Shown here: positions 9,672 through 9,724 of the stretch, piece by piece
Layout of the letters: every line of letters starts with the position of its first letter
Numbering within the stretch: position 1 is the stretch's first letter
Sequence record: PQ438391.1
Length of the DNA stretch: 64,000 bases
From: Escherichia phage vB_Eco_T-01
Strand: one strand, 5' to 3'
Translations under genes and position numbers: made by a program
The notes under the pieces: generated by a model
The model's input: only the letters and a program-made list of their open reading frames with translations
What the model was told of the DNA's origin: nothing
Database searches by the model: none

Positions 9672-9724
9672 GTTTACAAGTCCCTCATGTTGTGTTATAG
9701 TAGTCTTACTGACATAACATGAGG
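9672..9724 (+). promoter_or_regulatory. Promoter-early stem-loop cassette, copy A: GTTTAC...TTATAGTAG with inverted repeat cctcatgtt/aacatgagg
   Basis: GTTTAC 9672-9677; arms 9683-9691 and 9716-9724; near-identical to 23109-23161. Confidence 0.55.

Follow-up and report, generated by a model that had tools for sequence, protein, structure and literature searches.

Two near-identical early-promoter cassettes, each with a stem-loop, are located 13.4 kb apart in the genome of Escherichia phage vB_Eco_T-01 (PQ438391.1), and they raise the question of what such a pair does and how it arose: whether the copies delimit a block of genes that is shuffled as a module between T4-type phages, as the original prediction proposed, or whether each copy works at its own gene, and why the two are so alike. 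The window, which is the whole stretch of 64,000 nucleotides that was analysed, belongs to Tequatrovirus and is oriented as the reverse complement of standard T4. The two copies and the genes that they serve are distributed as follows:

9672-9725, + strand: copy A, a 54-nt early-promoter cassette that extends from the -35 to the Shine-Dalgarno sequence (SD), between rnlA and alc.
9733-10236, + strand: alc (Pfam ALC), served by copy A, with the first in-frame ATG at 9730.
23109-23162, + strand: copy B, a 54-nt cassette that extends from the -35 to the SD, between the remnant of an alt paralog and alt.-3.
23170-23460, + strand: alt.-3 (DUF5498, 96 aa), served by copy B.
23465-23486, bidirectional: terminator-like hairpin between alt.-3 and gene 54, which closes the copy B transcription unit.

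This gene context, with rnlA, copy A and alc in one region and alt, the alt remnant, copy B and alt.-3 in the other, is the one that had been described beforehand. The copy B unit sits just ahead of the convergent baseplate gene 54, and the hairpin located between alt.-3 and this gene shows a perfect G/C-rich stem of 9 bp, with T-runs on both strands.

Copies A and B are both on the + strand, in direct orientation, and read GTTTACAAGTCCCTC[A/G]TGTTGTGTTATAGTAGTCTTACTGACATAACATGAGG. The shared 54 nt open with the first base of the -35 GTTTAC and close with the final A of the SD GAGGA, and the sole mismatch is at element position 16, which is A in copy A and G in copy B. Outside these 54 nt, the sequences do not align on either side. 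The original prediction described two direct copies of 53 bp with one substitution: the location, the strand and the single substitution were correct, and the length falls one base short of the identity found. A match of this type was found in none of 100 dinucleotide-preserving shuffles. The alignment and the search for further copies, both of which had been suggested as checks, gave 54 nt with one mismatch and no third copy, either in the window or in complete T4 (blastn-short). A pattern scan of IMG/VR showed no loci beyond the known two, and all of its matches were from close relatives.

The same pair is present in T4, where copy A corresponds to 136336-136283 and copy B to 123093-123040; the two T4 copies also show a single difference, which is not position 16 but G40A in copy B. 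There are 490 phage records that contain copy A with its flanks; for copy B the matching records number about 497, 494 of the 497 with at least 80% coverage of the 94-nt query and at least 90% identity. A search in 'distant' mode gave two places per record in all the Tequatrovirus records listed. Since it is present in T4 and in about 490 relatives, the pair is a fixed feature of the genus and not a peculiarity of the window. The region around it had been considered otherwise diverged, which is not the case within the genus: the 17-kb stretch that spans both copies shows about 96% identity to hundreds of Tequatrovirus genomes, and therefore the conservation of the cassette within the genus is unremarkable. 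The likeness of the two copies to each other is a different matter. When 496 pairs of T4 early promoters were compared, the top identity was that of alc and alt.-3 (0.98), with a median of 0.65 and a 95th percentile of 0.76, and this value, far above that of the other pairs, together with the shuffles, rules out a likeness by chance or by consensus.

Both copies show the organization TTTACA-17 bp-TATAGT, with 10 of 12 matches and a TG in the promoter scan, in agreement with the early -35 GTTTAC and the TATAGT that the original prediction had read in each of them:

9673-9701, + strand: promoter of copy A, with TTTACA at 9673-9678, TG at 9693-9694 and TATAGT at 9696-9701.
23110-23138, + strand: promoter of copy B, with TTTACA at 23110-23115, TG at 23130-23131 and TATAGT at 23133-23138.

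From this geometry, the +1 is predicted near 9708 in copy A and near 23145 in copy B, about 7 nt past the -10. The features that define T4 early promoters, (G)TTTACA, a spacing of about 17 bp, TAnnnT and TGn, are present in both copies; the late consensus TATAAATA is absent from both, and the promoters are of the sigma-70 early type. The sequence upstream of the -35 is A/T-rich in copy B (ctaaaaagttcaaaatgta) and less A/T-rich in copy A (cccagaaggatactaagct), where the A/T run lies farther upstream. At the rnlA-alc junction, a 'promoter' has been annotated by others in phage Lutter and in Morganella phage MP1.

Each copy had also been credited with an inverted repeat of 9 bp. The repeat is present, and the pairing goes well beyond it: the predicted hairpin has 13-14 pairs, CCUCRUGUUGUGU(U) with (G)ACAUAACAUGAGG, G.U pairs included, and an additional 4-bp apical helix. 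Its arms occupy element positions 12-25 (5' arm, in the spacer) and 40-53 (3' arm, in the leader and most of the SD):

9683-9696, + strand: 5' arm of the copy A hairpin, within the -35/-10 spacer.
9711-9724, + strand: 3' arm of the copy A hairpin, which includes most of the SD GAGGA at 9721-9725.
23120-23133, + strand: 5' arm of the copy B hairpin.
23148-23161, + strand: 3' arm of the copy B hairpin, which overlaps the SD GAGGA at 23158-23162.

In an 86-nt context, the predicted fold has -28.2 kcal/mol (z -3.6) in copy A and -23.3 kcal/mol (z -4.0) in copy B, and none of 200 shuffles is as stable as the native sequences. In both copies, the four scored bases of the SD (GAGG) are all predicted to pair with bases located before the start, and the -10 and the expected start fall in the apical part of the hairpin. 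Because the 5' arm is contained in the -35/-10 spacer, an RNA started at the cassette promoter would lack it; RNA from just after the -10 (9702 onward in copy A) is unstructured, with z values of 0.09 and -0.49. Position 16 pairs with U49, as A-U in copy A and as G.U in copy B. The substitution had been described as a change from the first to the second with pairing retained, which is right for the pairing and reversed in polarity, since A16 is the variant. Rfam shows no family at either cassette, and its search of positions 9400-23600 gave one sub-threshold sRNA match, at 15772-15855 (the Rhizobiales sRNA Atu_C8, with 31 bits versus a gathering score of 50), which probably reflects terminator structure only and overlaps terminator-like hairpins at 15778-15794 and 15820-15841.

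We propose that the two copies are self-contained T4-type early cassettes set in an SD-masking hairpin, and that the alc cassette was copied to alt.-3, a reading that we consider probable with some reserve. Each cassette would be composed, in this order, of a UP-like A/T tract, GTTTACA, a 17-bp spacer, TGn, TATAGT, a short leader and the SD GAGGA. Host sigma-70 RNA polymerase would start in the apical part of the hairpin and produce an RNA without the 5' arm, in which the SD would be free and from which alc or alt.-3 would be translated as soon as the phage has infected the cell. Read-through RNA from rnlA or from late-promoted alt would contain both arms and would form a hairpin, with about -23 to -28 kcal/mol, which in this message would bury the SD and leave the downstream gene untranslated. 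Since the internal promoter is early and not late, the synthesis of Alc and Alt.-3 is expected to be confined to the early period. A likely source of the late read-through RNA that would reach copy B is located upstream of alt:

20666-20673, + strand: late-promoter consensus TATAAATA, recognised by its sequence only.

No exact late-promoter consensus was found in front of rnlA, and for this reason we assume both the source and the timing of the RNA that would read into copy A.

The hairpin can be followed at the rnlA-alc junction of other genera. A stem that straddles the -10 and has the SD as its 3' arm is found at this junction in seven genera: Tequatrovirus, Dhakavirus (IME08), Marfavirus, Gelderlandvirus (Melville), Jiaodavirus (JD18), Kagamiyamavirus (EcS1) and Karamvirus (EcL8g). 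The outgroup junctions were obtained from an annotated phage collection, and protein-seeded locus searches of IMG/VR gave only near-identical relatives. The arms vary between genera yet stay complementary (CCUCGUGUUGUGU, CUCCUCAU, CCUCGUUUGUU, CUCCGUUUAGUU, AUCCUCGUCAG, AUCCUCAUUUUGUUG, CUCCAUUUGGUU), and the 3' arm always ends in GAGG or GGAG, a few bases before the ATG. RNAalifold predicted no structure on a MAFFT alignment of the alc-locus cassettes, because the arms are 1-2 nt out of register between genera, and it was replaced by counts anchored on promoter geometry and by a chimera/permutation test. With the 5' arm anchored in this way, several of the columns 8-17 show between three and five pair types, five being the maximum. 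The native combinations of the two halves have a mean of -20.2 kcal/mol, versus -11.6 kcal/mol for between-genus chimeras, and when the 5' and 3' halves were re-paired at random 20,000 times, the native total was reached only 5 times, which is about the number of draws of the native pairing itself that is expected. This covariation suggests that the alc stem-loops would cover the ribosome binding site of read-through RNA, and, as the G.U pairs are on the sense strand, the hairpin would act as RNA rather than as DNA.

Covariation was compared between genera, variation inside Tequatrovirus being sparse and too low for it. The variants of the cassette in this genus are mostly structure-neutral or structure-improving: G16A changes G.U to A-U, the G40A of T4 changes U.G to U-A, and the G32A of wV7 is in the loop. 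Strict conservation of the cassette is ruled out by the copies A of ESh36 and DalCa, which show three to seven changes. In Shigella phage ESh36 (UNVERIFIED record), copy A (2291-2345) contains six to seven substitutions and its predicted fold still has -26 kcal/mol; in the same copy the -10 is TATAAT instead of TATAGT and the SD is GAGGGG instead of GAGGA, and copy B of this phage is identical to the consensus. Gaprivervirus MN01 contains an extra ORF of 77 aa (330-563) between rnlA and alc, with a G/C-rich terminator-like hairpin before it, so at least one genus has an insertion at the rnlA-alc junction.

A role of the stem-loops as terminators, attenuators or 3'-end stabilisers of the rnlA or alt transcripts, with an incidental overlap with the SD, seems rather unlikely. 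It would agree with the hairpins of both copies being strong, with the CUUU that follows the one of copy A, and with the reading of PeSL stem-loops as terminators or attenuators by Arbiol et al. (2010), in which strong attenuation was measured for one of them (RB49/phi1). However, no U-tract follows the hairpin of copy B (GGAACACAAAA), the terminator scan calls neither cassette, and a separate classical terminator is already present after alt.-3. The feature that stays constant across genera is the pairing with the SD, in a 3' arm whose end is tied to the vicinity of the ATG.

The second part of our proposal, the copying of the alc cassette, is based on the alt.-3 locus of other genera. Among the genera compared, the alc-type interior is found at alt.-3 in Tequatrovirus only. 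The cassette that occupies this locus in Dhakavirus, Mosigvirus, Marfavirus and Gelderlandvirus is another one, with a small palindrome contained in the spacer only (for example, CCACAUGGAUGUGG) and a free SD. The sequence of this palindrome varies by genus and its palindromy is kept: CCACAU..AUGUGG, ACACAU..AUGUGU and ACAUCC..GGAUGU. The flanks of the alt.-3 cassettes are orthologous to those of copy B: the left flank is ...TTCAAAATGTA-GTTTACAA and the right flank is ACATGAGGA...ATGAAATCT. Since the alt.-3 cassette is a different one in four other genera, copy B of Tequatrovirus probably derives from the alc cassette, which supports the recent copying that had been suspected and gives its direction, from A to B. 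In the simplest reading, the alc cassette is ancestral and an interior of about 37 nt overwrote the interior of the alt.-3 promoter once, in the Tequatrovirus stem lineage; we infer that it did so by ectopic recombination over a short patch, with the shared GTTTACAA and ACATGAGGA as anchors. The SD-masking hairpin is dispensable for both genes, because it is absent at alc in Mosigvirus and Gualtarvirus and at alt.-3 outside Tequatrovirus.

The distribution of the variant at position 16 differs between phages. T4 and RB32 have G16 at both loci, as do most of the other sequences examined with regard to this base, the window has A16 in copy A and G16 in copy B, wV7 has G16 in copy A and A16 in copy B, and RB51 has A16 in both; A16 is found at copy B in 16 records. 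The presence of A16 at either or both loci is compatible with a later conversion and also with a recurrent G>A transition. The G40A of T4 is absent at copy A from all records. In Mosigvirus JK42, the alc promoter (17350-17412) is about 70% identical to the alt.-3-type cassette of the same phage (30716-30778), and the alc promoter of Mosigvirus may be a replacement in the opposite direction, from the alt.-3 type to alc.

An exchange that involves the cassettes is also the basis of the idea that the copies are PeSL-type recombination sites, in which the repeats would be linkers for homologous exchange and the alc-to-alt block could be excised, duplicated or swapped. The order rnlA-alc...30-alt-alt.-3-54 is constant in Tequatrovirus, Mosigvirus, Dhakavirus, Marfavirus and Gelderlandvirus, and the copy A junction is uninterrupted in 486 of 490 records, which goes against the shuffling of the block as a module that the original prediction put forward. 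The block contains genes 30 and 31, which we take, from T4 genetics, to be essential, and its excision would therefore be lethal. Complete T4 has just two copies of the repeat, and it is the promoter itself that was exchanged and not the genes between the copies. We consider this explanation quite improbable, even though the anatomy of the copies is that of a PeSL, PeSL-PeSL mini-circles have been shown in RB49/phi1, the interior of the alt.-3 cassette has already been replaced by the alc type, A16 is found at both loci, and 54 nt is close to the length of homology given for T4 recombination (Singer, 1982, as reported in a paper that cites it).

Gene-content breakpoints in related phages, which the original prediction expected to coincide with the cassettes, also speak against module exchange. 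A homology break near 23090 is seen in most relatives, and the sole breakpoint in the vicinity, which is also the only indel adjacent to the repeat, consists in the loss of 1.69 kb between two 9-bp repeats CTAAAAAGT, located upstream of the -35; this deletion truncated the second alt paralog:

23090-23098, + strand: CTAAAAAGT, the 9-bp microhomology at the deletion junction, which ends 10 bp upstream of copy B.

This second paralog is truncated in the window and in T4 and is full-length in RB32, wV7, RB51 and most relatives. The gene-content break near copy B is a short-homology deletion, not an exchange through the 54-nt repeat. In the T4 annotation, alt.-1 and alt.-2 are considered to be the initial portion of alt, duplicated long ago; RB32 fits the deletion of a full-length paralog better. 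The remnant of the paralog in the window (22749-23137) is decaying: the equivalent of alt.-1 is MELIT followed by a stop, where T4 has a 61-aa ORF, and the equivalent of alt.-2 (22934-23137) runs across the copy B -35 and ends at the TAG within TATAGT.

Only very remotely might the inverted repeat be a DNA-level element at the -10 that tunes the open complex or binds a protein as duplex or extruded DNA: T4-type early promoters often contain inverted repeats in or beside the spacer, the palindromes that other genera confine to the spacer at alt.-3 cannot mask an SD and spacer sequence can influence promoter strength, but several conserved pairs are G.U on the sense strand and would be A.C mismatches on the opposite strand, the 3' arm tracks the SD and not a fixed distance from the -10, and we know of no candidate protein that binds the repeat. 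All three of these explanations are rated below the masking of the SD.

The SD-masking design is not limited to copies A and B. The + strand of the window contains seven sites with an early promoter and an SD, and pairs cross the predicted start in all seven; at four of these sites, the partners of all four scored SD bases lie upstream of the predicted start. Besides the two copies, the early-promoter-like cassettes with a hairpin across the predicted start are:

539-568, + strand: early-promoter-like cassette.
1249-1278, + strand: early-promoter-like cassette.
12978-13007, + strand: early-promoter-like cassette, in which four of four scored SD bases pair with bases before the start.
15870-15899, + strand: early-promoter-like cassette, with the same pairing of four of four scored SD bases.
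16262-16290, + strand: early-promoter-like cassette.

Complete T4 contains 32 sites with an early promoter and an SD, many of which show a hairpin that straddles the -10, and about 10 of the 32 bury the SD, such as those before regB, motB.2, denV, 30.8 and nrdC.8. The translation start regions of T4 that contain a promoter have a mean z of -2.2, versus -0.43 in 81 controls (Mann-Whitney p = 4e-5). Other close pairs of T4 early promoters show identities of 0.89, 0.87 and 0.85 over 54 nt. Four near-identical pairs of 30-45 nt are found in T4 NC_000866: 57990/20612, 146875/55384, 166807/53943 and 2458/50973; the last one was judged by eye, and the other three are those scored 0.85-0.89. As other T4 early-promoter pairs are nearly identical, the homogenisation of cassettes is possibly recurrent. 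It is conceivable, as a tentative generalisation that we do not hold as the more probable case, that T4-like early promoters are as a rule set in SD-burying hairpins and that their cassettes are homogenised by short-patch ectopic conversion; as part of the same joint reading, the published PeSL stem-loops may be, at least partly, translational masks and not terminators.

Copies A and B belong to a kind that is already known, the T4 early promoter or PeSL-type cassette, and both sequences are contained in the reference T4 genome. T4 early promoters form the 'UP/-35/TGn/-10' class (Hinton, 2010; PMC2988021). The two copies share with them GTTTACA, the 17-bp spacer, TGn and TAnnnT, as well as the location on the early strand, immediately before early genes; there is no difference in kind, and the pair is merely the most alike. 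[quoted passage not shown] The copies resemble PeSLs in being intergenic composites of promoter, stem-loop and SD/start, with the stem-loop over the -10, which is among the positions described for PeSLs, as are the -35/-10 spacer, the -35 box, and sites upstream or just downstream, in being repeats in direct orientation, and in the signs of ectopic recombination of the cassette itself. The assignment to PeSLs by the original prediction is consequently correct for the anatomy, which matches the definition of Arbiol et al. (2010), and fails in that the copies delimit no shuffled module: only the interior of the cassette was exchanged, and PeSL behaviour, that is, location at breakpoints and mediation of module exchange, was not found. 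Unlike PeSLs, the copies are only two, are located in a conserved and not in a hyperplastic region, have essential genes between them and show no exchange of gene content at their edges. Their stem is A/U-rich and pairs with the SD, whereas that of PeSLs is G/C-rich and terminator-like, and they overlap the -10, whereas the stem-loops of PST are placed upstream of the promoter (figure legend in Comeau et al., 2014; PMC4122927).

Translational control by a promoter inside a hairpin is known for T4 e, soc, 49 and I-TevI (Uzan and Miller, 2010; PMC3014915). As predicted here for copies A and B, the upstream transcripts of these genes fold and their SD is sequestered, and, as the geometry of the two copies indicates, the proximal start is inside the hairpin and the 5' arm is missing from the transcript. 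The difference is in the timing: the proximal promoter of e, soc, 49 and I-TevI is late and their expression is delayed, whereas that of copies A and B is of the early sigma-70 type and expression would be confined to the early period. In the literature searched, which did not include the classical promoter lists, no publication naming this promoter pair and no start-site or translation data for either cassette were found. What may be new in detail is the alt.-3 promoter as a converted copy of the alc promoter and the covariation that would indicate an SD-masking role. Overall, the observation that started this analysis is confirmed, and its interpretation is supported in part: it holds for the cassette and for the copying, not for module shuffling.

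The module-shuffling idea can be dropped for this pair. The pair is a clean, datable case of one early promoter overwriting another, and the overwritten alt.-3 promoter is direct comparative evidence of cassette recombination, the central assumption of the PeSL hypothesis. The occlusion of the ribosome site by such stem-loops, which the comparison between genera suggests, is a function that is not discussed in the PeSL papers. If the SD-burying hairpin is a rule among T4-like early promoters, each early gene would be translated only from its own promoter, and the cassette would be a promoter-autonomous translational insulator.
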